64,000 nucleotides of DNA. It comes from Escherichia coli (GTDB lineage Bacteria; Pseudomonadota; Gammaproteobacteria; Enterobacterales; Enterobacteriaceae). Position 1 is the first letter of the stretch. Each line of letters starts with the position of its first letter. The stretch lies in NCBI RefSeq assembly GCF_050920415.1, contig NZ_CP169309.1; one strand, given 5' to 3'. The notes under the pieces were generated by a model. That model made no database searches. It had not been told where the DNA came from and was given only the letters and a program-made list of their open reading frames with translations. The position numbers and the translations under genes are program-made. This document shows, one piece after another, positions 1,564 through 63,415 of this stretch.

Positions 1564-2766
1564 ATGTTAACAGTGGAAATGTTATCCACCGGGGATGAAG
1601 TGTTACACGGGCAAATCGTTGACACTAACGCTGCCTGGCTGGCCGATTTTTTCTTTCATCAGGGGTTGCCATTATCTCGCCGCAATACGGTGGGGGATAA
1701 CCTTGATGACTTAGTCACCATTCTGCGCGAACGTAGTCAGCACGCCGATGTGCTGATCGTCAATGGCGGACTGGGGCCGACCAGTGATGATTTAAGCGCA
1801 CTCGCCGCTGCGACTGCAAAAGGAGAAGGCCTGGTGCTGCATGAGGCCTGGCTCAAAGAGATGGAACGTTATTTTCGCGAACGTGGACGGGTGATGGCAC
1901 CGAGCAACCGTAAACAAGCGGAGCTACCTGCCAGTGCAGAATTTATCAATAACCCGGTAGGCACCGCTTGTGGTTTTGCCGTGCAGCTTAATCGTTGCCT
2001 GATGTTCTTTACCCCCGGCGTACCGTCAGAATTTAAGGTGATGGTCGAGCACGAAATCCTGCCGCGCCTGCGCGAGCGTTTTTCTTTACCGCAGCCGCCG
2101 GTTTGTCTGCGTTTGACTACCTTTGGTCGTTCGGAAAGCGATCTGGCGCAAAGCCTGGACTCCCTGCAACTGCCGCCGGGCGTTACAATGGGCTATCGCT
2201 CTTCTATGCCGATAATTGAACTTAAGCTGACCGGACCGGCAAGCGAGCAACAGGCGATGGAAAAACTGTGGCTGGACGTTAAACGTGTTGCCGGACAGAG
2301 CGTGATTTTCGAAGGCACCGAAGGACTGCCCGCGCAGATCAGTCGCGAATTGCAGAGCCGCCAGTTCAGCCTGACGTTGAGCGAGCAATTCACCGGTGGT
2401 TTATTGGCTTTGCAACTTTCTCGCGCAGGTGCTCCATTGCTGGCGTGTGAAGTAGTTCCTTCACAGGAAGAAACCCTGGCGCAAACTGCGCACTGGATTA
2501 CAGAACGGCGTGCCAACCATTTTGCCGGGCTGGCACTGGCTGTTTCTGGTTTCGAGAACGAACATCTCAACTTTGCGCTAGCCTCGCCAGACGGCACTTT
2601 CGCTCTGCGTGTGCGTTTCAGCACTACGCGCTACAGCCTGGCTATCCGTCAGGAAGTGTGCGCAATGATGGCACTGAATATGCTGCGCCGTTGGTTAAAC
2701 GGTCAGGACATCGCCAGTGAGCATGGCTGGATTGAGGTTGTTGAGTCCATGACTTTATCTGTCTGA
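1564..2766 (+). CDS. yfaY: CinA-like protein (competence/damage-inducible family, MoCF-binding N-domain)
   Basis: 400-aa ORF with AGGAGA RBS 8 nt upstream; N-terminal LSTGDE(V/L)L..G...DTN motif characteristic of the CinA/MoaB family; position matches K-12 yfaY. Confidence 0.8.
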   Translation: MLTVEMLSTGDEVLHGQIVDTNAAWLADFFFHQGLPLSRRNTVGDNLDDLVTILRERSQHADVLIVNGGLGPTSDDLSALAAATAKGEGLVLHEAWLKEMERYFRERGRVMAPSNRKQAELPASAEFINNPVGTACGFAVQLNRCLMFFTPGVPSEFKVMVEHEILPRLRERFSLPQPPVCLRLTTFGRSESDLAQSLDSLQLPPGVTMGYRSSMPIIELKLTGPASEQQAMEKLWLDVKRVAGQSVIFEGTEGLPAQISRELQSRQFSLTLSEQFTGGLLALQLSRAGAPLLACEVVPSQEETLAQTAHWITERRANHFAGLALAVSGFENEHLNFALASPDGTFALRVRFSTTRYSLAIRQEVCAMMALNMLRRWLNGQDIASEHGWIEVVESMTLSV

Positions 2767-2985
2767 TTCCGCCACTCCGTGCCGGTTTACTGCACCGGCA
2801 CGTTCCCCCTCCGGCAAAATTTGTCCAACCTGTTGTACTCAATAAGAAAAAATCCGTGCGCTGATTCACAAATTTGTGCGTAATTTCTCCAGTCCGCTGG
2901 ACGAGGTGCGGGATTTGATGCGCTTCACAATTTTACTCCCCCTGAGCAACGAGACTGATTCCAGTATCTAAGACTGGAGTCCAGT

Positions 2986-3768
2986 ATGTTGGAATCAAGC
3001 AAAGTTCCCGCCCTGACACGGGCTATTGATATTCTCAATTTGATTGCCCGCATTGGCCCCTGTAGTGCTGCGACGATCATTGACACATTGGGGATCCCTA
3101 AAAGCACGGCCTATTTGCTGCTTAATGAACTCAGGCGTCAGCGTTTTCTTAGCCTTGATCACCAGGAAAATTTTTGTTTGTGGACCAAGCTGGTGGAGCT
3201 TTCCGGTCATGCGTTAAGCAAGATGGATCTCCGGGAACTGGCTCGACCGCGTTTGACGCAACTGATGGATACCACCGGGCTGTTATGTCACCTGGGGATT
3301 ATTGATAACGGCAGCGCTTATTACATTTTGAAAGTGGAGTCATCAGCCACTATCAGCGTGCGTTCCCATGAAGGAAAAAGCCTTTCGCTTTATCGCTCCG
3401 GAATAGGTAAATGCCTGCTAGCCTGGCAACCTGCATCTGTACAGCAAAGTATTATCGAAGGGCTGGTCTGGGAGCAGGTGACACCCACAACGATTACTCA
3501 TCCACAGCAACTTCACGAAGAACTGGCGCGTATTCGCCGTCAGGGCTGGAGCTATGACAACGGCGAAGATTACGCCGATGTCCGTTGTGTCGCTGCGCCG
3601 GTGTTTAACGCCAATAACGAGCTTACCGCTGCGATCTCGGTGGTCGGTACCCGCTTACAAATCAATGAAGAATACCGTGATTATCTGGCGGGCAAGGCCA
3701 TTGCCTGCGCCAGGGATATTTCACGTCTGTTGGGATGGAAAAGTCCCTTTGACTTACAGGCCTCATAA
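2986..3768 (+). CDS. rhmR: IclR-family transcriptional regulator of L-rhamnonate utilisation
   Basis: 260-aa ORF; N-terminal HTH ([15 protein letters not shown]) and C-terminal IclR effector domain; immediately precedes rhmD-rhmT-rhmA. Confidence 0.85.
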
Positions 3769-3782
3769 CAATGGAGAACAGC

Positions 3783-4988
3783 ATGACCCTACCAAAAATC
3801 AAACAGGTTCGCGCCTGGTTTACTGGCGGTGCGACAGCAGAAAAAGGCGCTGGCGGCGGTGATTATCACGACCAGGGGGCGAATCACTGGATTGACGATC
3901 ATATTGCCACCCCGATGAGTAAATACCGCGATTACGAGCAGTCACGCCAGTCATTTGGCATTAACGTTCTTGGCACGTTGATTGTTGAAGTCGAAGCAGA
4001 AAACGGCCAGACCGGATTCGCCGTTTCGACAGCCGGTGAAATGGGCTGTTTTATTGTCGAAAAACACCTTAACCGTTTCATTGAGGGTAAATGTGTCAGT
4101 GATATCAAACTGATCCACGATCAAATGCTCAATGCCACCCTGTATTACTCCGGCTCTGGTGGCCTGGTGATGAATACGATTTCCTGTGTCGATCTGGCTC
4201 TGTGGGATCTGTTCGGCAAAGTGGTCGGGCTTCCGGTTTATAAACTTTTAGGCGGCGCAGTTCGTGATGAGATTCAGTTCTACGCCACAGGTGCGCGTCC
4301 GGATCTGGCAAAAGAGATGGGCTTTATCGGTGGCAAAATGCCGACGCACTGGGGGCCACATGATGGCGATGTGGGGATCCGCAAAGATGCCGCTATGGTC
4401 GCGGATATGCGTGAAAAATGCGGTGAGGATTTCTGGTTAATGCTCGACTGCTGGATGAGTCAGGACGTGAACTATGCCACCAAACTGGCCCACGCTTGCG
4501 CGCCCAATAACCTGAAATGGATCGAAGAGTGCCTGCCGCCACAGCAGTATGAAGGTTATCGCGAACTGAAACGCAACGCGCCAGTCGGAATGATGGTCAC
4601 CAGCGGTGAGCATCACGGCACACTGCAATCTTTCCGTACGCTTTCAGAAACCGGTATCGACATTATGCAGCCGGATGTTGGCTGGTGCGGTGGCTTAACC
4701 ACGCTGGTGGAAATTGCCGCAATCGCCAAATCCAGAGGGCAACTGGTGGTGCCGCACGGTTCGTCTGTTTACTCTCACCATGCGGTGATCACCTTCACCA
4801 ATACGCCATTCAGCGAATTCCTGATGACCAGCCCGGATTGTTCAACGATGCGTCCGCAATTTGATCCGATTCTGCTTAATGAGCCAGTGCCGGTGAATGG
4901 TCGTATTCATAAATCAGTGCTTGATAAACCCGGTTTCGGCGTCGAGCTCAATCGTGACTGCAATTTGAAACGCCCCTACAGCCACTAA
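3783..4988 (+). CDS. rhmD: L-rhamnonate dehydratase (enolase superfamily)
   Basis: ORF 3771..4988; start placed at ATG 3783 ([13 protein letters not shown]...) with GGAGA RBS; mandelate racemase/enolase-superfamily fold inferred from the translation. Confidence 0.85.
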
Positions 4989-44258: not shown

Positions 44259-47108
44259 TTGAAATACCTTGCTTCTTTTCGTACAACCCTGAAAGCCTCG
44301 CGCTACATGTTCAGAGCATTGGCGTTAGTGCTCTGGCTGTTGATTGCTTTTTCATCCGTTTTTTACATCGTTAATGCGTTGCATCAGCGAGAATCGGAAA
44401 TTCGTCAGGAATTTAATCTGAGTTCCGATCAGGCTCAGCGCTTTATTCAACGCACCTCTGATGTGATGAAAGAGCTGAAGTACATAGCTGAAAATCGCTT
44501 ATCGGCAGAAAACGGTGTGCTTTCGCCGCGTGGACGAGAAACGCAGGCAGATGTGCCTGTGTTTGAACCACTGTTTGCCGACTCCGATTGTTCCGCAATG
44601 AGTAACACCTGGCGAGGTTCTCTGGAGTCATTGGCGTGGTTTATGCGCTACTGGCGCGATAATTTCTCTGCGGCTTACGATCTCAACCGGGTATTTTTAA
44701 TCGGCAGCGATAACCTCTGCATGGCCAATTTCGGTCTACGTGATATGCCAGTGGAACGCGATACCGCATTGAAAGCTTTGCATGAACGCATCAATAAATA
44801 TCGAAATGCACCACAAGATGATAGCGGCAGTAACCTCTACTGGATCAGCGAAGGTCCGCGCCCTGGCGTCGGGTATTTTTACGCCTTGACGCCAGTTTAT
44901 CTGGCGAACCGGTTGCAGGCGCTTTTGGGTGTCGAGCAGACCATCAGGATGGAGAACTTCTTCTTACCTGGTACGTTGCCGATGGGGGTAACCATTCTTG
45001 ATGAAAATGGTCATACCCTGATTTCGCTTACCGGACCGGAAAGCAAGATTAAGAGCGATCCTCGCTGGATGCAGGAACGTTCCTGGTTTGGCTATACGGA
45101 AGGGTTCAGGGAACTGGTGCTGAAGAAAAACCTGCCACCTTCATCGTTAAGCATCGTCTATTCGGTGCCGGTTGATAAGGTGCTGGAGCGCATTCGCATG
45201 TTGATCCTTAACGCGATTTTACTGAATGTGCTTGCCGGAGCCGCGTTGTTTACTCTCGCACGGATGTACGAGCGGCGTATATTCATTCCTGCGGAAAGCG
45301 ACGCCCTGCGACTGGAAGAGCACGAGCAGTTTAATCGCAAGATTGTCGCTTCCGCGCCAGTGGGTATCTGCATTTTGCGTACCGCTGATGGCGTTAATAT
45401 TTTAAGTAACGAACTTGCGCATACCTATCTCAATATGCTTACGCATGAGGATCGCCAACGACTGACGCAAATTATCTGTGGTCAGCAGGTCAATTTTGTT
45501 GATGTCCTGACCAGCAACAATACCAATCTGCAAATCAGCTTCGTCCATTCGCGCTATCGTAATGAAAACGTCGCCATTTGTGTGCTGGTGGATGTTTCTT
45601 CGCGCGTGAAGATGGAAGAGTCGTTGCAGGAGATGGCACAAGCAGCGGAACAGGCGAGCCAGTCAAAATCGATGTTCCTTGCCACCGTCAGTCATGAGCT
45701 GCGAACGCCGCTATATGGCATTATCGGTAACCTGGATCTTTTGCAAACCAAAGAGTTACCGAAAGGCGTCGATCGTCTGGTGACGGCAATGAACAACTCT
45801 TCCAGCCTGTTGTTGAAAATTATCAGCGATATTCTCGACTTCTCGAAGATTGAATCGGAACAGTTGAAGATCGAACCGCGTGAGTTTTCACCGCGTGAAG
45901 TGATGAACCACATCACCGCCAACTATTTGCCGCTGGTGGTACGCAAGCAGCTAGGCTTGTACTGCTTTATTGAACCGGATGTGCCAGTGGCCTTAAATGG
46001 CGACCCAATGCGTTTACAGCAGGTCATCTCCAACCTGTTGAGTAACGCCATAAAATTCACCGATACCGGCTGTATAGTTCTGCATGTTCGAGCTGATGGC
46101 GATTATCTCTCTATCCGCGTTCGCGATACCGGCGTAGGGATTCCGGCGAAAGAAGTGGTGCGCTTGTTTGATCCCTTCTTCCAGGTCGGAACGGGCGTAC
46201 AGCGAAACTTCCAGGGGACCGGTCTGGGTCTGGCGATTTGTGAAAAACTGATCAGCATGATGGACGGCGATATCTCGGTAGATTCAGAACCGGGAATGGG
46301 CAGCCAGTTTACCGTGCGTATTCCGTTGTACGGCGCTCAGTACCCGCAGAAAAAAGGCGTGGAAGGGTTGAGTGGTAAACGCTGCTGGCTGGCGGTCCGC
46401 AATGCGTCGCTCTGTCAGTTCCTGGAAACCAGTTTGCAGCGCAGCGGCATAGTCGTTACAACATACGAAGGGCAGGAACCGACTCCCGAAGATGTGTTAA
46501 TCACTGACGAGGTAGTGAGCAAAAAATGGCAGGGTAGAGCGGTAGTGACCTTCTGTCGTCGCCATATTGGTATTCCGCTGGAGAAAGCGCCAGGGGAGTG
46601 GGTACACAGTGTGGCTGCACCGCATGAGCTACCGGCATTGTTGGCGCGTATTTATTTGATCGAGATAGAGAGCGATGATCCTGCTAACGCTCTGCCGTCG
46701 ACGGACAAAGCGGTCAGCGATAACGACGATATGATGATTCTGGTCGTGGATGATCATCCGATTAACCGGCGTCTGCTGGCAGATCAGTTGGGATCGCTGG
46801 GCTATCAATGTAAAACCGCGAATGATGGCGTCGATGCGCTTAATGTACTTAGCAAGAATCATATTGATATCGTGCTTAGCGACGTCAACATGCCAAATAT
46901 GGATGGTTACCGCTTGACGCAACGCATTCGTCAGTTGGGGCTGACGTTGCCGGTAATCGGAGTAACTGCTAATGCGCTGGCTGAAGAGAAGCAGCGGTGT
47001 CTGGAGTCCGGTATGGACAGCTGCCTGTCGAAGCCGGTAACGCTGGATGTGATAAAACAGACACTGACGGTATATGCCGAGAGGGTTCGGAAATCGCGGG
47101 AATCGTAG
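44259..47108 (+). CDS. rcsC: Hybrid sensor kinase RcsC
   Basis: 949-aa ORF; H-box (SHELRTPLYGI), HATPase domain and C-terminal receiver domain (MMILVVDDHPINRRL...D). Confidence 0.95.
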   Translation: MKYLASFRTTLKASRYMFRALALVLWLLIAFSSVFYIVNALHQRESEIRQEFNLSSDQAQRFIQRTSDVMKELKYIAENRLSAENGVLSPRGRETQADVPVFEPLFADSDCSAMSNTWRGSLESLAWFMRYWRDNFSAAYDLNRVFLIGSDNLCMANFGLRDMPVERDTALKALHERINKYRNAPQDDSGSNLYWISEGPRPGVGYFYALTPVYLANRLQALLGVEQTIRMENFFLPGTLPMGVTILDENGHTLISLTGPESKIKSDPRWMQERSWFGYTEGFRELVLKKNLPPSSLSIVYSVPVDKVLERIRMLILNAILLNVLAGAALFTLARMYERRIFIPAESDALRLEEHEQFNRKIVASAPVGICILRTADGVNILSNELAHTYLNMLTHEDRQRLTQIICGQQVNFVDVLTSNNTNLQISFVHSRYRNENVAICVLVDVSSRVKMEESLQEMAQAAEQASQSKSMFLATVSHELRTPLYGIIGNLDLLQTKELPKGVDRLVTAMNNSSSLLLKIISDILDFSKIESEQLKIEPREFSPREVMNHITANYLPLVVRKQLGLYCFIEPDVPVALNGDPMRLQQVISNLLSNAIKFTDTGCIVLHVRADGDYLSIRVRDTGVGIPAKEVVRLFDPFFQVGTGVQRNFQGTGLGLAICEKLISMMDGDISVDSEPGMGSQFTVRIPLYGAQYPQKKGVEGLSGKRCWLAVRNASLCQFLETSLQRSGIVVTTYEGQEPTPEDVLITDEVVSKKWQGRAVVTFCRRHIGIPLEKAPGEWVHSVAAPHELPALLARIYLIEIESDDPANALPSTDKAVSDNDDMMILVVDDHPINRRLLADQLGSLGYQCKTANDGVDALNVLSKNHIDIVLSDVNMPNMDGYRLTQRIRQLGLTLPVIGVTANALAEEKQRCLESGMDSCLSKPVTLDVIKQTLTVYAERVRKSRES

Positions 47109-47306
<198 letters not shown>

Positions 47307-47957
47307 TTAGTCTTTATCTGCCGGACTTAAGGTCACAGAAGAGAGATAATTCAGCAGAGCAATATCGTTCTCGACACCCAGCTTCATCATCGCAGATTTC
47401 TTCTGGCTACTGATGGTTTTGATACTGCGGTTCAGCTTTTTAGCGATCTCGGTCACCAGGAAGCCTTCCGCAAACAGGCGCAGAACTTCACTCTCTTTTG
47501 GCGAGAGACGCTTGTCACCATAACCGCCAGCACTGATTTTTTCTAACAGGCGAGAAACGCTTTCCGGGGTAAATTTCTTCCCTTTCTGCAGCGCGGCGAG
47601 AGCTTTCGGCAGATCGGTCGGTGCACCTTGTTTCAGCACGATCCCTTCGATATCCAGATCCAATACCGCACTAAGAATCGCCGGGTTGTTGTTCATGGTC
47701 AGAACGATGATCGACAGGCTTGGGAAATGGCGCTTGATGTACTTGATTAAGGTAATTCCATCGCCGTACTTATCGCCAGGCATGGAGAGATCGGTAATCA
47801 ACACATGCGCATCCAGTTTCGGCAGGTTGTTGATCAGTGCTGTAGAGTCTTCAAATTCGCCGACAACATTCACCCACTCAATTTGCTCAAGTGATTTGCG
47901 AATACCGAACAAGACTATCGGATGGTCATCGGCAATAATTACGTTCATATTGTTCAT
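47307..47957 (-). CDS. rcsB: Response regulator RcsB (LuxR/FixJ family)
   Basis: ORF 47307..48002; start placed at ATG 47957 (MNNMNVIIADDHPIVLFGIRKSL...); 216 codons; C-terminal LuxR-type HTH. Confidence 0.95.
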   Translation of the reverse strand: MNNMNVIIADDHPIVLFGIRKSLEQIEWVNVVGEFEDSTALINNLPKLDAHVLITDLSMPGDKYGDGITLIKYIKRHFPSLSIIVLTMNNNPAILSAVLDLDIEGIVLKQGAPTDLPKALAALQKGKKFTPESVSRLLEKISAGGYGDKRLSPKESEVLRLFAEGFLVTEIAKKLNRSIKTISSQKKSAMMKLGVENDIALLNYLSSVTLSPADKD

Positions 47958-47973
47958 GTAATAGGCTACCTTG

Positions 47974-50646
47974 CTACAGCAAGCTCTTGACATAACTGTC
48001 AATGTCGCTGATGTATTTTTCTATTCCTGGAACATCCTTCTCACGAATCAGATGTTCCAGCGTTTCACATAACTGCTTGCCGGGTACCAGATTTAGCATG
48101 GCAAATACGCCTTTAAGACGATGAGCCGTTTGGGCTAACGCAGCAAAGTCACTGGTTGCTGCTTCAGTATACAGCCTCTTAACATCATCCGGTACTGTGT
48201 CTACAAAGAGCGCATAATAGCCGCTGGCATGGAGTTGCGCATTTTCATCTCCGCCCAGAGGCGATTCTGTCACCTCTTCCTGCGCCAGTTGCACTTCAAT
48301 TAATTGTAAGACCGCTTCCTGCATAGCGTTGCTCATATTGAAGTTGACGCACAATTGACCAGGCCCAATTTCCCGTACGCCAGACTCATCATCGCTTAAA
48401 AGCAAGCCAGAGGCAGTAAGATTAGACGGATTATCCGTTAAAAAGATATCATAATCTTGACTAATTAATCTTTCATCGGGTGTGATACAGGTTGCACCCC
48501 AATTTTCTAACTGGCGAGTGACAATATTCCGAATTTCTGCCGAAGTAACATCCACCATTATGCAGACATCATCCAGTAATCGTTCTTCTTCCTCTTCAAC
48601 TTCCGGGTCAGCTGCGAGCATTTTGATATGCACAGAGTAGCGTGTACCAAGCCCATCCCGCGTTTTGATGTTTAAATGACCGCCCAGTTTACGCGCCAGT
48701 TGATCGCTCAACCAGAATGCCAGCGGGTCGGCCTTGCCATAGCGATCGTTTTGGGTCCGGTTGATAAACGGGAAGTGCAAATTATCCATTTCATGAATGC
48801 TTACGCCTTCTCCGGTGTCCAGAATGCGGAACGTCAGGCGGTCTTCGGAGGACTCATCCTGATCAACCTCAAGGGTGATTTTTCCCAATTGCGTTGAGGT
48901 CACGGCATATTGCATCAGTAGTAGCAAAATACGTCGTAAGGCATCGCGATCGCCGCGGCGCATATCGTGTGCTTTCAGATGATTGTTAATCAGCAGTTGC
49001 AGACCTTTACGCTTGATGGCAGGCAATACTGAAGGCACAACTTCATCAATCAAATCCTGCACGGAGAACAGCTCCGTCTCACTTTTCCAGCTATCGTCCG
49101 CAAGCATATTCGCTAACTGTATTTCATCGACCAGCCGCACCAGCACATCTGCCTGATTCGCCAGTTGTTTGCCTTCCGGGGCGTTGAGTTTAGCCGCGCT
49201 CTCCGCCAGGGACTGTGCGGGTTCTTTCAGCGCATCGCCAATGTTTTTCATAAAGGTCATCCGCCCCTGCTGGTTTTTCTCATACAGACGCTGCGCCTGC
49301 TTGAGTTTCTTGTTTACCAGCACTTCGCGATCCTGATCGCGAATAATGAAAATTTGTGTGCGCGGCGCAACCTGGCTGCGGAACATGCGGATCTCATACA
49401 GCTCGTTATTGATCGTCGCCTGAATAATCCCCTGATGCTGTTCCGCCATGGTGGTGATGTTTTGCAGATTTAAATGCGGCAGCAGGTGATCGGCAATTTT
49501 GTTACTTATGACCGTGCGGTTCGATTCCTGATCGTGAACCAGCAGGCCGAGCGGCAGCAGTGAGACTATCTCTTCATTAATTGCCCGTAAAATGCGCAAT
49601 TCGTTATTGACCGCCGTGCTGGGGACGCTTTCTGTACTGCGGCTGGAGAAATGGCGGAATGTGGTATAGCCAAATAACGCCAGCGCCAGCAAACCGATGT
49701 TCAGCAGCAGTGGCAGCAGAATGTTTTGCAACGTATCCAGCAATAAGGTGCCATAAGGAACCTGCCAGACCAGGCGCATATCGGTAGAGTTGAGTGCCGA
49801 GGAGATTTCAATCTTCGTACTGTTAAAGTGGATACTGACGCTATCCGTCCCTTCTTTCTCATTTTCATTGTTTCCCGTTGCCGTCGCGTCTGGCTCAAGG
49901 CGGAAACTGTCCAGCGGCATACCCGGTGGGATCAAATCATTAATCGGCAGATCAAAAGCAACGACCGTTGCCAGATGTCCCGGCTGGTTGAACGTGGTAC
50001 GCAAGGTAAAGTAATGACCGTTCTGCCAGGCCAGGCGGCGCAGGTTAGAAAAACTTTCGCGTTCATCGAGCGCGTTGGCCTGTTGCAACATCTCTGCGCG
50101 ACGTGAATCAACAATGTCGCTGACGGTCGATTCTTTAAATCCGGAGGTGAGATCTTTGAGGGGCAGGGTCGAGATCAGTACCAGACTGTTATCCTGACCA
50201 TTCAGGTAATACATCGACCACGGTACATTTTCTGCGCCCCACAATGTGTCCAGATAGGTGGACATCCGTTGAGTCATCTCAAGCGTTGAGTTGTCGTGAG
50301 AGCCAAAGATTAACGCTTCCGTTTTGCGGCGTGGTTTTTCCAGATAGTAGACATCCTGTTTCAGGCGCGTCTCTTGTAAACCTTCGCCGGAGGAGGGGGA
50401 GGTCGTCGCGGCAATGTTGTCGTAGATCTGCCAGGTCACGTAACGCCAGGTATCGACGCGCTTTTGGATTGCGTGGGTAATGTCGACAATCTGGTAACTT
50501 TTATCTTTCAGCCAGGCGTTAACGGCGCTTTGCACCATTACACCCATCGTCACCAGTAACACAATGATCAACAGTAAAAAGAAGCGGGTAATGCTCCCCG
50601 GTAGGAGTGAAAAGCGGGTCGTGGCCGTTGTCTCTTTCTGACGCAT
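47974..50646 (-). CDS. rcsD: Phosphotransfer intermediate RcsD
   Basis: 890-aa ORF beginning MRQKETTATTRFSLLPGSITRFFLLLIIVLLV... with a C-terminal HPt domain (AHRLKG). Confidence 0.93.
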   Translation of the reverse strand: MRQKETTATTRFSLLPGSITRFFLLLIIVLLVTMGVMVQSAVNAWLKDKSYQIVDITHAIQKRVDTWRYVTWQIYDNIAATTSPSSGEGLQETRLKQDVYYLEKPRRKTEALIFGSHDNSTLEMTQRMSTYLDTLWGAENVPWSMYYLNGQDNSLVLISTLPLKDLTSGFKESTVSDIVDSRRAEMLQQANALDERESFSNLRRLAWQNGHYFTLRTTFNQPGHLATVVAFDLPINDLIPPGMPLDSFRLEPDATATGNNENEKEGTDSVSIHFNSTKIEISSALNSTDMRLVWQVPYGTLLLDTLQNILLPLLLNIGLLALALFGYTTFRHFSSRSTESVPSTAVNNELRILRAINEEIVSLLPLGLLVHDQESNRTVISNKIADHLLPHLNLQNITTMAEQHQGIIQATINNELYEIRMFRSQVAPRTQIFIIRDQDREVLVNKKLKQAQRLYEKNQQGRMTFMKNIGDALKEPAQSLAESAAKLNAPEGKQLANQADVLVRLVDEIQLANMLADDSWKSETELFSVQDLIDEVVPSVLPAIKRKGLQLLINNHLKAHDMRRGDRDALRRILLLLMQYAVTSTQLGKITLEVDQDESSEDRLTFRILDTGEGVSIHEMDNLHFPFINRTQNDRYGKADPLAFWLSDQLARKLGGHLNIKTRDGLGTRYSVHIKMLAADPEVEEEEERLLDDVCIMVDVTSAEIRNIVTRQLENWGATCITPDERLISQDYDIFLTDNPSNLTASGLLLSDDESGVREIGPGQLCVNFNMSNAMQEAVLQLIEVQLAQEEVTESPLGGDENAQLHASGYYALFVDTVPDDVKRLYTEAATSDFAALAQTAHRLKGVFAMLNLVPGKQLCETLEHLIREKDVPGIEKYISDIDSYVKSLL

Positions 50647-50948: not shown

Positions 50949-51051
50949 AAGAAGGGTAAAAAAAAACCGGATGCGAGGCATCCGGTTGAAATAGGGGTAA
51001 ACAGACATTCAGAAATGAATGACGGTAATAAATAAAGTTAATGATGATAGC
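50949..51051 (-). ncRNA. micF: MicF antisense sRNA (represses ompF translation)
   Basis: Minus strand reads GCTATCATCATTAACTTTATTTATTACCGTCATTCATTTCTGAATGTCTGTTTACCCCTATTTCAACCGGATGCCTCGCATCCGG followed by a T-run, matching my recollection of micF with its terminator hairpin; divergent from ompC. Confidence 0.85.
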
Positions 51052-51370
51052 GGGAGATATTCTAGTTGCGAGTGAAGGTTTTGTTTTGACATTCAGTGCT
51101 GTCAAATACTTAAGAATAAGTTATTGATTTTAACCTTGAATTATTATTGCTTGATGTTAGGTGCTTATTTCGCCATTCCGCAATAATCTTAAAAAGTTCC
51201 CTTGTATTTACATTCTGAAACATCTATAGCGATAAATGAAACATCTTAAAAGTTTTAGTATCATATTCGTGTTGGATTATTCTGCATTTTTGGGGAGAAT
51301 GGACTTGCCGACTGATTAATGAGGGTTAATCAGTATGCAGTGGCATAAAAAAGCAAATAAAGGCATATAA

Positions 51371-57368: not shown

Positions 57369-59027
<1,659 letters not shown>

Positions 59028-59029
59028 TG

Positions 59030-59285
59030 ATGTGCCACATCCGGCATGTTATGCCGGATGTGGCGTATGCTGATAAGACGCGCCAGCGTCGCATCAGTCA
59101 ACCGGCTTGGGCGTTAGATGTCGGATGCGGCGTGACCGCCTTATCCGACCTACGGGGTGGAGCACTTCACAGCGGTGTAGGCCTGATAAGACGCGCCAGC
59201 GTCGCATCAGGCAACCGGCTCGGGCGTTGGATGTCGGATGCGGCGTGACCGCCTTATCCGACCTACGGGGTGCCGCACTTCACGG
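59030..59285. repeat. REP/BIME cluster between convergent mqo and eco
   Basis: Two tandem units about 120 bp apart (…gatgcggcgtgaccgccttatccgacctacggggtg…) plus flanking gccggatg / catccggc palindromes. Confidence 0.8.
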
Positions 59286-59289
59286 CAGT

Positions 59290-59778
59290 TTAGCGGACTA
59301 CCGCGTTGTCAATTTTCTCTTCCGCCTTCCAGATGCGGTATTTCACATCTACATTGTCTGGCGTATACACCACGATAGGCAGCTTGCTGTTGTAACGCAG
59401 CATTCCGGCATCGCCCAGATACGCGGTGACAAATTTCTTCTCTTTCTTGCCATCCGGGCAGGCCATCATCGTGGAAACCGGCGAGCTAACTTTATCAAAG
59501 ACGTAATAATCATAGCCCCAGCCTTCCAGCGTTTTGCTTTCCAGCTTCCCGCCGAGACGATGCAAATTGCAATCGACTTCCAGCGTCTGACCGATTAACA
59601 GTTCTACTTTCAGGGTAGATTCATCTTCTTGCGGGGTTAACTGAATCACCTGACGCTTCATGCCTTTTTCAGCTTGCGGATAAGGCGCGATTTTTTCCAG
59701 TGGCTGGACGCTCTCTGCCGCCCAGGCGGAAGTGGTAGCGAAAGCGGCAAACAATACTGCAGGTAGAATGGTCTTCAT
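59290..59778 (-). CDS. eco: Ecotin, periplasmic serine-protease inhibitor
   Basis: 162-aa ORF with signal peptide ([20 protein letters not shown]) and an ecotin-like mature sequence. Confidence 0.93.
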
Positions 59779-60679: not shown

Positions 60680-60932
60680 CTGGCAAGTTTGCAGCCTGGT
60701 CGTGCAGGCCAAAAGCGAACGAATTTCAGACATCAGCACCCAACTGAACGCCTTTCCCGGCTGTGAAGTCGCTGTCAGCGACGCGCCGAGCGGTCAGTTG
60801 ATTGTGGTGGTGGAAGCAGAAGACAGCGAAACGCTGATCCAAACCATTGAGTCAGTACGCAACGTAGAGGGCGTGCTGGCGGTGTCGCTGGTTTATCACC
60901 AGCAGGAAGAGCAAGGTGAGGAAACACCATGA
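60669..60932 (+). CDS. napD: NapD, chaperone for NapA
   Basis: 87-aa ORF overlapping napF (11 nt) and napA (ATGA); [19 protein letters not shown]... Confidence 0.9.
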
Positions 60933-63415
60933 AACTCAGTCGTCGTAGCTTTATGAAAGCTAACGCCGTTGCGGCCGCTGCGGCGGCTGCCGGTCTCAGC
61001 GTGCCGGGCGTTGCCCGCGCCGTTGTTGGTCAGCAGGAAGCCATTAAATGGGATAAAGCACCATGCCGTTTCTGCGGTACTGGTTGTGGCGTTCTGGTCG
61101 GAACGCAGCAGGGGCGTGTGGTGGCCTGTCAGGGCGACCCGGACGCACCGGTTAACCGTGGTCTGAACTGCATTAAGGGCTATTTCCTGCCCAAAATCAT
61201 GTACGGTAAAGACCGTTTGACGCAGCCGCTGCTGCGTATGAAAAACGGTAAATATGACAAAGAAGGCGAATTTACCCCAATCACCTGGGATCAGGCCTTC
61301 GATGTGATGGAAGAGAAATTCAAAACCGCCCTGAAAGAAAAAGGGCCGGAATCGATCGGTATGTTCGGTTCTGGTCAGTGGACTATCTGGGAAGGTTATG
61401 CCGCGTCCAAGCTGTTCAAAGCGGGCTTCCGTTCGAACAACATCGACCCGAACGCGCGTCACTGTATGGCGTCGGCAGTAGTTGGCTTTATGCGTACCTT
61501 TGGTATGGATGAGCCGATGGGCTGCTATGACGACATCGAGCAGGCTGACGCGTTTGTGCTGTGGGGCGCTAACATGGCGGAGATGCACCCGATTCTCTGG
61601 TCGCGCATCACCAACCGTCGTCTCTCTAACCAGAACGTCACCGTGGCGGTGCTTTCTACCTACCAGCATCGTAGCTTCGAGCTGGCGGATAACGGCATCA
61701 TCTTTACGCCACAGTCTGACCTGGTGATCCTGAACTACATCGCCAACTATATCATTCAAAACAACGCGATAAATCAGGACTTCTTTAGCAAACACGTTAA
61801 CCTGCGCAAAGGGGCGACGGACATCGGCTACGGTTTACGTCCGACCCATCCGCTGGAAAAAGCAGCGAAGAATCCAGGTTCTGACGCTTCCGAACCGATG
61901 AGCTTTGAAGATTACAAAGCCTTCGTTGCTGAGTATACGCTGGAAAAAACCGCTGAAATGACCGGCGTGCCGAAAGACCAGTTAGAACAACTGGCGCAGC
62001 TGTATGCCGATCCGAACAAGAAAGTCATCTCCTACTGGACGATGGGCTTCAACCAGCATACCCGTGGTGTGTGGGCCAACAACCTGGTCTACAACCTGCA
62101 CCTGCTGACTGGCAAAATTTCTCAGCCGGGTTGCGGTCCGTTCTCCCTGACCGGGCAGCCTTCCGCGTGTGGTACTGCGCGAGAAGTGGGCACCTTTGCT
62201 CACCGTCTGCCTGCGGACATGGTGGTGACCAATGAGAAACACCGTGATATCTGCGAGAAGAAGTGGAATATCCCGAGCGGCACCATTCCGGCGAAAATCG
62301 GCCTGCACGCGGTGGCACAGGACCGTGCGCTGAAAGACGGCAAACTGAATGTTTACTGGACCATGTGTACCAATAACATGCAGGCCGGACCAAACATTAA
62401 TGAAGAGCGTATGCCGGGCTGGCGCGATCCGCGCAACTTTATCATCGTTTCCGATCCGTATCCGACGGTCAGTGCGCTGGCAGCGGACTTGATCCTGCCG
62501 ACCGCAATGTGGGTAGAAAAAGAGGGTGCTTACGGTAACGCCGAACGCCGTACTCAATTCTGGCGTCAGCAGGTACAGGCACCGGGCGAAGCGAAATCGG
62601 ATCTCTGGCAGTTAGTTCAGTTCTCCCGCCGCTTCAAAACTGAAGAAGTGTGGCCGGAAGAATTGCTGGCGAAGAAACCGGAACTGCGTGGCAAAACGCT
62701 GTATGAGGTTCTGTATGCCACCCCGGAAGTGAGCAAATTCCCGGTATCCGAACTGGCAGAAGATCAGTTGAACGATGAATCCCGCGAGCTGGGCTTCTAT
62801 CTGCAAAAAGGGCTGTTCGAAGAGTATGCATGGTTTGGTCGCGGTCACGGTCACGATCTCGCGCCGTTCGATGACTACCACAAAGCGCGCGGTCTGCGCT
62901 GGCCGGTGGTTAACGGTAAAGAAACGCAGTGGCGTTATAGCGAAGGTAACGACCCGTACGTGAAAGCGGGTGAAGGCTACAAGTTCTACGGTAAACCGGA
63001 TGGCAAAGCGGTGATCTTCGCACTGCCGTTCGAACCGGCGGCGGAAGCACCGGATGAAGAGTACGATCTGTGGCTCTCTACCGGGCGTGTCCTGGAGCAC
63101 TGGCACACCGGCAGTATGACTCGCCGTGTACCGGAACTGCACCGTGCCTTCCCGGAAGCGGTCCTGTTTATTCATCCGCTGGATGCGAAAGCGCGCGATC
63201 TGCGTCGTGGCGACAAAGTGAAAGTGGTTTCTCGCCGTGGCGAAGTGATCTCGATTGTTGAAACGCGCGGTCGTAACCGTCCGCCGCAGGGCCTGGTGTA
63301 TATGCCGTTCTTCGACGCCGCACAGCTGGTTAACAAACTGACGCTGGATGCGACCGATCCGCTCTCGAAAGAGACGGACTTCAAGAAGTGTGCGGTCAAA
63401 CTGGAGAAGGTGTAA
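60929..63415 (+). CDS. napA: Periplasmic nitrate reductase catalytic subunit NapA
   Basis: 828-aa ORF; twin-arginine signal ([20 protein letters not shown]) and N-terminal 4Fe-4S Cys cluster ([10 protein letters not shown]...C). Confidence 0.95.

Follow-up and report, generated by a model that had tools for sequence, protein, structure and literature searches.

A two-unit REP array in the spacer between mqo and eco of Escherichia coli

The spacer between mqo and eco

The sequence analysed here (the window) is a stretch of 64,000 nucleotides from Escherichia coli (NCBI RefSeq assembly GCF_050920415.1, contig NZ_CP169309.1) that contains the convergent genes mqo, on the plus strand, and eco, on the minus strand. 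Both genes and their orientation had been named in an earlier reading of this DNA made from its letters alone (the sequence-only reading), and they are confirmed here by the open reading frames and by matches to NCBIfam models. The spacer that separates them has 262 bp (59028-59289), and a tandem repeat and a hairpin take up essentially all of it, in agreement with the earlier claim that a repeat cluster occupies the whole of this spacer. The features found, in the positions of the window, are the following:

57381-59027, plus strand: mqo, malate:quinone oxidoreductase (NCBIfam NF003603, 1256.8 bits, full length); stop codon TAA at 59025-59027
59031-59067: locus-specific hairpin, starting 3-6 nt past the mqo stop; perfect 14-bp stem with a 3-nt loop at 59034-59064
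59065-59099, minus strand: Z2 REP, copy 1; palindrome intact, foot degenerate (GTATGC for GTAGGCC), head G changed to T
59068-59150, minus strand: match of unit 1 to Rfam RF02564 (naRNA4), 60.2 bits (gathering score 59.5), covering model positions 1-77 of 77
59070-59182: 113-bp tandem unit 1, in the phase given by the repeat finders
59101-59118: head-to-head linker of unit 1, 18 nt, ACCGGCTTGGGCGTTAGA
59120-59153, plus strand: Y REP, copy 1, GTCGGATGCGGCGTGACCGCCTTATCCGACCTAC; matches Y with 3 mismatches (chance expectation 0)
59154-59176: tail-to-tail linker between the units, 23 nt
59177-59212, minus strand: Z2 REP, copy 2, canonical; matches GCCTGATGCGACGCTGGCGCGTCTTATCAGGCCTAC with 0 mismatches (chance expectation 0)
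59180-59263, minus strand: match of unit 2 to Rfam RF02564 (naRNA4), 75.1 bits (gathering score 59.5), covering model positions 1-77 of 77
59183-59295: 113-bp tandem unit 2, in the phase given by the repeat finders; overlaps the stop codon of eco with its final bases
59214-59231: head-to-head linker of unit 2, 18 nt, ACCGGCTCGGGCGTTGGA
59233-59266, plus strand: Y REP, copy 2, same sequence as copy 1; 3 mismatches to Y
59267-59289: homologue of the tail linker, reaching the eco stop; weak 6-bp hairpin on the minus strand
59290-59778, minus strand: eco, ecotin (NCBIfam NF002987, 262.3 bits); stop codon TAA at 59292-59290

All four REP copies are extragenic, with the stop codons of mqo (59027) and eco (59290) on either side, and a scan of positions 58800-59500 gave no promoter-like sites on either strand. 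Two mechanically called open reading frames of the plus strand, 59027-59248 (73 aa) and 59107-59598 (163 aa), lie across the REP array and antisense to eco; it is almost certain that neither is a gene. Reading frames called within the array, such as 59027-59248, should be disregarded in annotation. The records examined differ in the annotated length of eco, which is 510 nt in the K-12, BL21-type and 23CRST025 records and 489 nt in the others; we assume that this reflects a different choice of start codon.

The 36-mer pointed out in the sequence-only reading occurs exactly twice (59124-59159 and 59237-59272), with 0 occurrences expected from shuffles. Tandem Repeats Finder reported a single array at 59070-59283 with a period of 113, 1.9 copies, 95% matches, no indels and a score of 393, a repeat search paired 59070-59180 with 59183-59293 at 93% identity, and the pairwise alignment of both units had a mean column identity of 96%. 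The tandem duplication that had been proposed is therefore real, its spacing being 113 bp rather than the estimated 120 bp or so. In each 113-bp unit an inverted Z2 REP is joined by an 18-nt head-to-head linker to a Y REP, which is followed by a 23-nt tail-to-tail linker. The head-to-head linker of unit 1 appears in the alignment as a 7-nt insertion with respect to both the naRNA4 model and the other REP array of the window (between rcsC and rcsB, see below). Flanking short palindromes had also been described; the one at the mqo side is present as a perfect 14-bp inverted repeat, whereas at the eco side there is only the weak 6-bp hairpin inside the tail linker.

REP class, folding and the hairpin next to mqo

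The reference strings for Y, Z1 and Z2 used in classifying the REPs are those that Durrant et al. 2024 give in their Methods (PMC11208160). From a fuzzy-regex REP scan only the layout was used, its error counts being inflated. The main proposal of the sequence-only reading, a REP/BIME cluster with a tandemly duplicated unit, is borne out by 0 mismatches in Z2 and 3 in each Y; alignment to the REP consensus had been set beforehand as the test that could refute it, and the units do align to the published Y and Z2. Two of the three mismatches in the Y copies form a compensating change of the stem from C-G to T-A. The REP foot is found as CCTAC after both Y copies and as GTAGGCC before the second Z2, the exception being the first Z2 (GTATGC). 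This first copy is homologous to 59177-59212 in the unit alignment and folds into its hairpin; its mismatches to Z2 number more than 3. The stem mismatch of REPs is visible in the folds as internal loops, and the order along the spacer is Z2 (minus), Y (plus), Z2 (minus), Y (plus), i.e., head-to-head in alternation with tail-to-tail.

As defined by Ton-Hoang et al. (PMC3333891), BIME-2 consist of z2 and y REPs in inverse orientation and in multiple tandem copies, with linkers of variable length and sequence and a copy number that differs among strains, while BIME-1 are formed by z1 and y in single copy with a long linker that binds IHF. The mqo-eco array contains Y and Z2 (not Z1) in alternating orientation, in tandem units of strain-variable number. 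Set against the short S linkers of BIME-2, its linkers measure 18 nt head-to-head (the naRNA4 model and the rcsC/rcsB array both have 11 nt) and 23 nt at the tail. Like BIME-1 (RIB/RIP), it has an inverted REP pair and occupies an extragenic spacer where transcription units have their 3' ends. However, BIME-1 carry Z1, are single-copy and have the IHF site in a long linker, whereas here the partner is Z2, the units are in tandem, and the IHF core motif WATCAANNNNTTR had no match in the spacer on either strand. We rejected a BIME-1 identity because this motif is absent, and the partner REP, a Z2, also speaks against it.

The mqo-eco spacer is very probably a two-unit allele of the known E. coli eco-mqo BIME-2, that is, a non-coding, extragenic Z2-Y-Z2-Y array that follows a locus-specific hairpin. 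The array is already catalogued for K-12 and is present here as an uncommon allele with two units. In the main-text literature we found nothing relevant on a REP/BIME array between mqo and eco, the published record sitting in a supplementary table (Sutormin et al. 2019). The correct label for this spacer is BIME-2 (REP) array, and not gene, terminator or novel repeat; beyond correct annotation its importance is small.

The window contains a second array of this type at 47104-47300, between two convergent reading frames, 44259-47108 (plus strand) and 47307-48002 (minus strand), that the sequence-only reading had named rcsC and rcsB. It is BIME-2-type, with two units of ca. 114 bp formed by Y and Z2 head to head, the first Y being degenerate, and its second unit matched Rfam naRNA4 with 84.3 bits on the plus strand and 62.9 bits on the minus strand. 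The earlier idea that the two spacers carry different REP subfamilies did not hold, as both arrays consist of two Y and Z2 units head to head between convergent genes and both match naRNA4. What distinguishes the rcsC/rcsB array is an 11-nt head-to-head linker (18 nt in mqo-eco), an unrelated 31-nt tail-to-tail linker, the opposite orientation on the plus strand and a few compensatory changes in the stems, among them a Z2 variant GCCAGAT...ATCTGGC.

Both strands of the mqo-eco spacer fold into five strong hairpins, with energies of -138.1 and -128.2 kcal/mol (z of -4.8 and -6.1), and none of 200 shuffled spacers folded as well. We aligned 18 distinct units: one belongs to the rcsC/rcsB array of the window, and the other 17 come from eight strains of E. 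coli plus one other Escherichia species. Across this alignment 96% of the stem cells were paired, against 26-43% when the partners were slid, and three stem pairs showed compensatory changes. A strand-specific analysis of wobble pairs in the Y stem variants gave a mixed result (G-U kept on the minus strand in some and on the plus strand in others), from which no selected transcript was inferred. In the first unit of T7Express and strain 700481 the first Z2 reads CTGATAAGACGC...GCGTCTTATCAG, so that the usual GC/TT stem mismatch has been made a perfect palindrome; this mismatch has been reported as necessary for the binding of TnpA(REP) (PMC3333891).

The hairpin beside mqo falls outside the canonical REPs. 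It is present in the minimum free energy folds of both strands, and as plus-strand RNA three extra pairs, two of them G-U, lengthen its stem to 59031-59067. A 46-nt query found it in 5414 of 5426 E. coli genomes, at one place per genome, on which basis we rejected that it is a dispersed repeat, and it is conserved in Escherichia sp. E1V33. Its right arm matches the head of the Y REP in 14 of 15 positions, and to judge from this likeness it may be a foldback derivative of a REP. At a permissive E-value Rfam gave only two meaningless microRNA matches to this hairpin (E = 0.13-0.9) and, for the rest of the spacer, naRNA4 alone.

On both strands very stable GC-rich hairpins fill the spacer from 3-6 nt past the mqo stop onwards, and their position suits two convergent genes, which raises the question of a bidirectional intrinsic terminator serving both mqo and eco. 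The scan of 58800-59500, run over both strands, returned 0 terminator-like sites, as none of the stems has a T-run after it, the mqo hairpin included. Moreover, the same palindromes belong to a dispersed repeat family and are not a signal specific to this locus, and E. coli Tig228 is devoid of the mqo hairpin, which was lost by a 48-bp deletion. A terminator function of this kind appears unlikely to us. We rejected a classical terminator as well as an internal promoter, the scan being empty on both strands. The array of Tig228 (locus extract 400-727) has three units, and the deletion removed half of the first Z2 together with the hairpin, which is therefore dispensable at least in that isolate.

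Unit number across strains

The comparison of this spacer with other strains, which the sequence-only reading had asked for, was carried out with a query containing only the flanks (400 bp of mqo and 400 bp of eco), and 60 rows were taken at even intervals from the ranked list of 5,421 genomes. Units were deduced from the lengths of the spacers, the sequences being checked for examples of each class. The distribution was:

1 unit: 38 of 60 genomes
2 units: 1 of 60 genomes, a strain identical to the window
3 units: 1 of 60 genomes, and 1 more that also carries the 48-bp deletion
4 units: 1 of 60 genomes
5 units: 5 of 60 genomes
6 units: 9 of 60 genomes
7 units: 3 of 60 genomes
Array interrupted by an IS: 1 of 60 genomes

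In this sample of the ca. 5,400 complete E. coli genomes the array thus varies from 1 to 7 units, as expected for a BIME, with one unit as the commonest form. The K-12 spacer has 714 bp, exactly 262 + 4 x 113, and contains six units in the same layout. It coincides with the window in the locus, the flanking genes, the mqo hairpin, the succession of Z2, 18-nt linker, Y and 23-nt linker, and the 113-bp period; the differences are the number of units (six against two, in spacers of 714 and 262 bp) and a few substitutions, including variants in the loop and stem of Y. As tandem GC-rich palindromes are difficult to assemble and the two-unit form was found in a single sampled genome, identical to the window, we considered whether the duplication could be an artefact of assembly or sequencing, or a chance similarity. 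The 262-bp, two-unit spacer is found in three independent complete assemblies (MFDS1022581, EC42405 and N96) with few unit-specific substitutions, which refutes an assembly artefact, and the whole-number series of alleles from 1 to 7 and the Tandem Repeats Finder score of 393 point in the same direction. The probability that we give to any explanation of this sort is negligible.

The BIME-2 allele with two units was met only in the lineage of the window, which also includes one-unit strains. This lineage is rare: genomes at least 99% identical numbered 2 by the mqo/eco flanks or 6 by napA among ca. 5,420 (window regions 58628-59689 and 60929-63415), the rest being 95-99% identical. The window is identical to strain MFDS1022581. 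Four strains with its exact variant of the mqo hairpin have mqo 3' flanks 98.6-98.8% identical to it, and EC42405, N96 and 2020CK-00188 are among the best napA matches (99.0-99.2%). Among these close relatives there are two units in EC42405 and N96 and one in 2020CK-00188 and 2013C-4282. Besides, the second unit of EC42405 bears the linker variants of unit 1, while that of the window resembles the terminal units of K-12. These differences among close relatives indicate that whole units have been gained, lost and converted over a short time scale. Gain and loss of whole units is a behaviour already described for BIMEs (PMC3333891).

Such changes would arise when the 113-bp units recombine unequally or slip during replication, possibly with the assistance of TnpA(REP), the REP-associated transposase. 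In vitro, BIMEs are bound, cleaved and recombined by this protein, which has also been put forward as the driver of their amplification (PMC3333891). Given this, and a unit number that varies inside a single lineage, it could be argued that the array actively moves as a REPIN-like unit, with TnpA(REP) mobilising it. We find this improbable. The unit with the 18-nt linker occurs at one locus only, the one other genome of a species-representative collection in which it was found having it at the same mqo-eco position, and homologous recombination or slippage accounts for changes in steps of whole 113-bp units. That other genome is Escherichia sp. E1V33, with three units and a first Z2 that has an intact GTAG. 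The contig scan by linker pattern that detected just this genome took exact matches only, and it is uninformative about E. albertii, E. fergusonii and Salmonella. Since the array of E1V33 is at the same locus, it must be older than the species E. coli, and this synteny marks it as an old and resident structural repeat.

The distribution of unit numbers looks bimodal in our sample (one unit in 38/60, five to seven in 17/60, two to four rare). It is highly doubtful that the unit number acts as a selected dial, setting either gyrase recruitment between mqo and eco or the amount of naRNA4-like RNA from eco read-through, with the two-unit allele as a short-lived intermediate, rather than varying neutrally along the phylogeny. 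From a practical point of view, the 113-bp polymorphism provides a convenient strain marker, and the natural series of 1-7 units could be used to relate gyrase cuts or mRNA stability to the number of Y REPs. Scaling tests of this kind would extend known biology and open no new question.

One further variant was found in E. coli 23CRST025 (locus extract 2005-4000, IS CDS 2436-3416), where the mqo-eco BIME array is interrupted by an IS621-family (IS110-like) element. The insertion point lies in the foot of a Y REP, between ...ATCCAACCT and CTACGGGG, with CT on both sides, and the target 11-mer ATCCAACCTAC differs in 3 positions from the usual IS621 target ATCAGGCCTAC (PMC11208160).

Gyrase, transcript ends and the naRNA4 model

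The published record of the array is an entry of Table DS3 in Sutormin et al. 2019 for K-12 ('BIMEs2 2308874-2309528, 654 bp, eco>-<mqo'), which gives the gyrase cleavage sites detected by Topo-Seq in this six-unit allele, the only one to which the cleavage data refer: 11 with ciprofloxacin (Cfx), 7 with rifampicin plus ciprofloxacin (RifCfx), 2 with microcin B17 (Micro) and 5 with oxolinic acid (Oxo). As annotated in the same table, Espeli & Boccard 1997 had located 6 in-vivo gyrase cuts in the K-12 array, a number that agrees with its six Y REPs. Cutting by gyrase is far more frequent in y REPs than in z2, and the signal is undiminished when transcription is blocked with rifampicin (Sutormin et al. 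2019). For the two-unit array of the window a simple prediction would be two gyrase cuts; most of the short BIME-2 entries of Table DS3 have 0 cleavage sites (Sutormin et al. 2019). By extension from the K-12 orthologue, the array as DNA would be a transcription-independent site of gyrase binding and cleavage, mainly in the Y REPs, placed between convergent genes where positive supercoils would accumulate.

At the level of RNA, read-through from mqo or eco would form GC-rich stem-loops at the 3' ends of the mRNAs. To judge from the general behaviour of REPs, these would block 3'-5' exonucleases rather than act as true intrinsic terminators. In the summary given in PMC12306157, REP stem-loops protect mRNA 3' ends, and REPs at 15 nt or less from a stop codon stall ribosomes and interfere with translation. 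If what is described for canonical REPs can be extended to it, the mqo hairpin, only 3-6 nt past the stop, would be near enough to interfere with terminating ribosomes.

Another possible role is suggested by the Rfam matches, both of which fall on the minus strand, i.e., the eco-sense strand. The RNA naRNA4 corresponds to the Y-linker-Z2 unit of REP325 (PMC4550694), an array with which the mqo-eco spacer shares tandem, intergenic Y-linker-Z2 units, both of them above the gathering score. REP325 differs in its locus, yjdM-yjdN, and in having six units instead of two; the linker of the mqo-eco units is 7 nt longer and their Y stem has a compensated change of C-G to U-A. About 80% of REP elements are transcribed, and HU-dependent condensation needs an RNA with two hairpins, Y and Z2 (Qian et al., PMC4550694). 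With both units matching the full RF02564 model on the eco-sense strand (75.1 and 60.2 bits), they might be primarily genes for naRNA4-like RNAs, processed from eco read-through, that would act as proposed for REP325, by HU binding and the bridging of DNA cruciforms (Qian et al. 2015). We regard this as rather unlikely. The model fits effectively any Y-linker-Z2 unit of a BIME-2, including the rcsC/rcsB array, which matches on both strands, so that a match shows sequence class and not function. In addition, unit 1 is barely above the threshold, the spacer has no promoter-like site, and the experiments are confined to REP325, the only array for which naRNA4 has been demonstrated as a discrete HU-binding, DNA-condensing RNA (PMC4550694). 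For the mqo-eco units, a naRNA4-like role would be suggested by their sequence class only, and their assignment as a resident BIME-2 array is the reading that we prefer.

Elsewhere in the window there is a solitary Y-like REP at 19601-19634, aatGCCGGATAAGGCAttttaCGCCGCATCCGGCAtc, that is devoid of the GTAG foot, and the antisense RNA MicF was identified at 50959-51052 on the minus strand by a full-length Rfam match of 116.8 bits, against a gathering score of 79.
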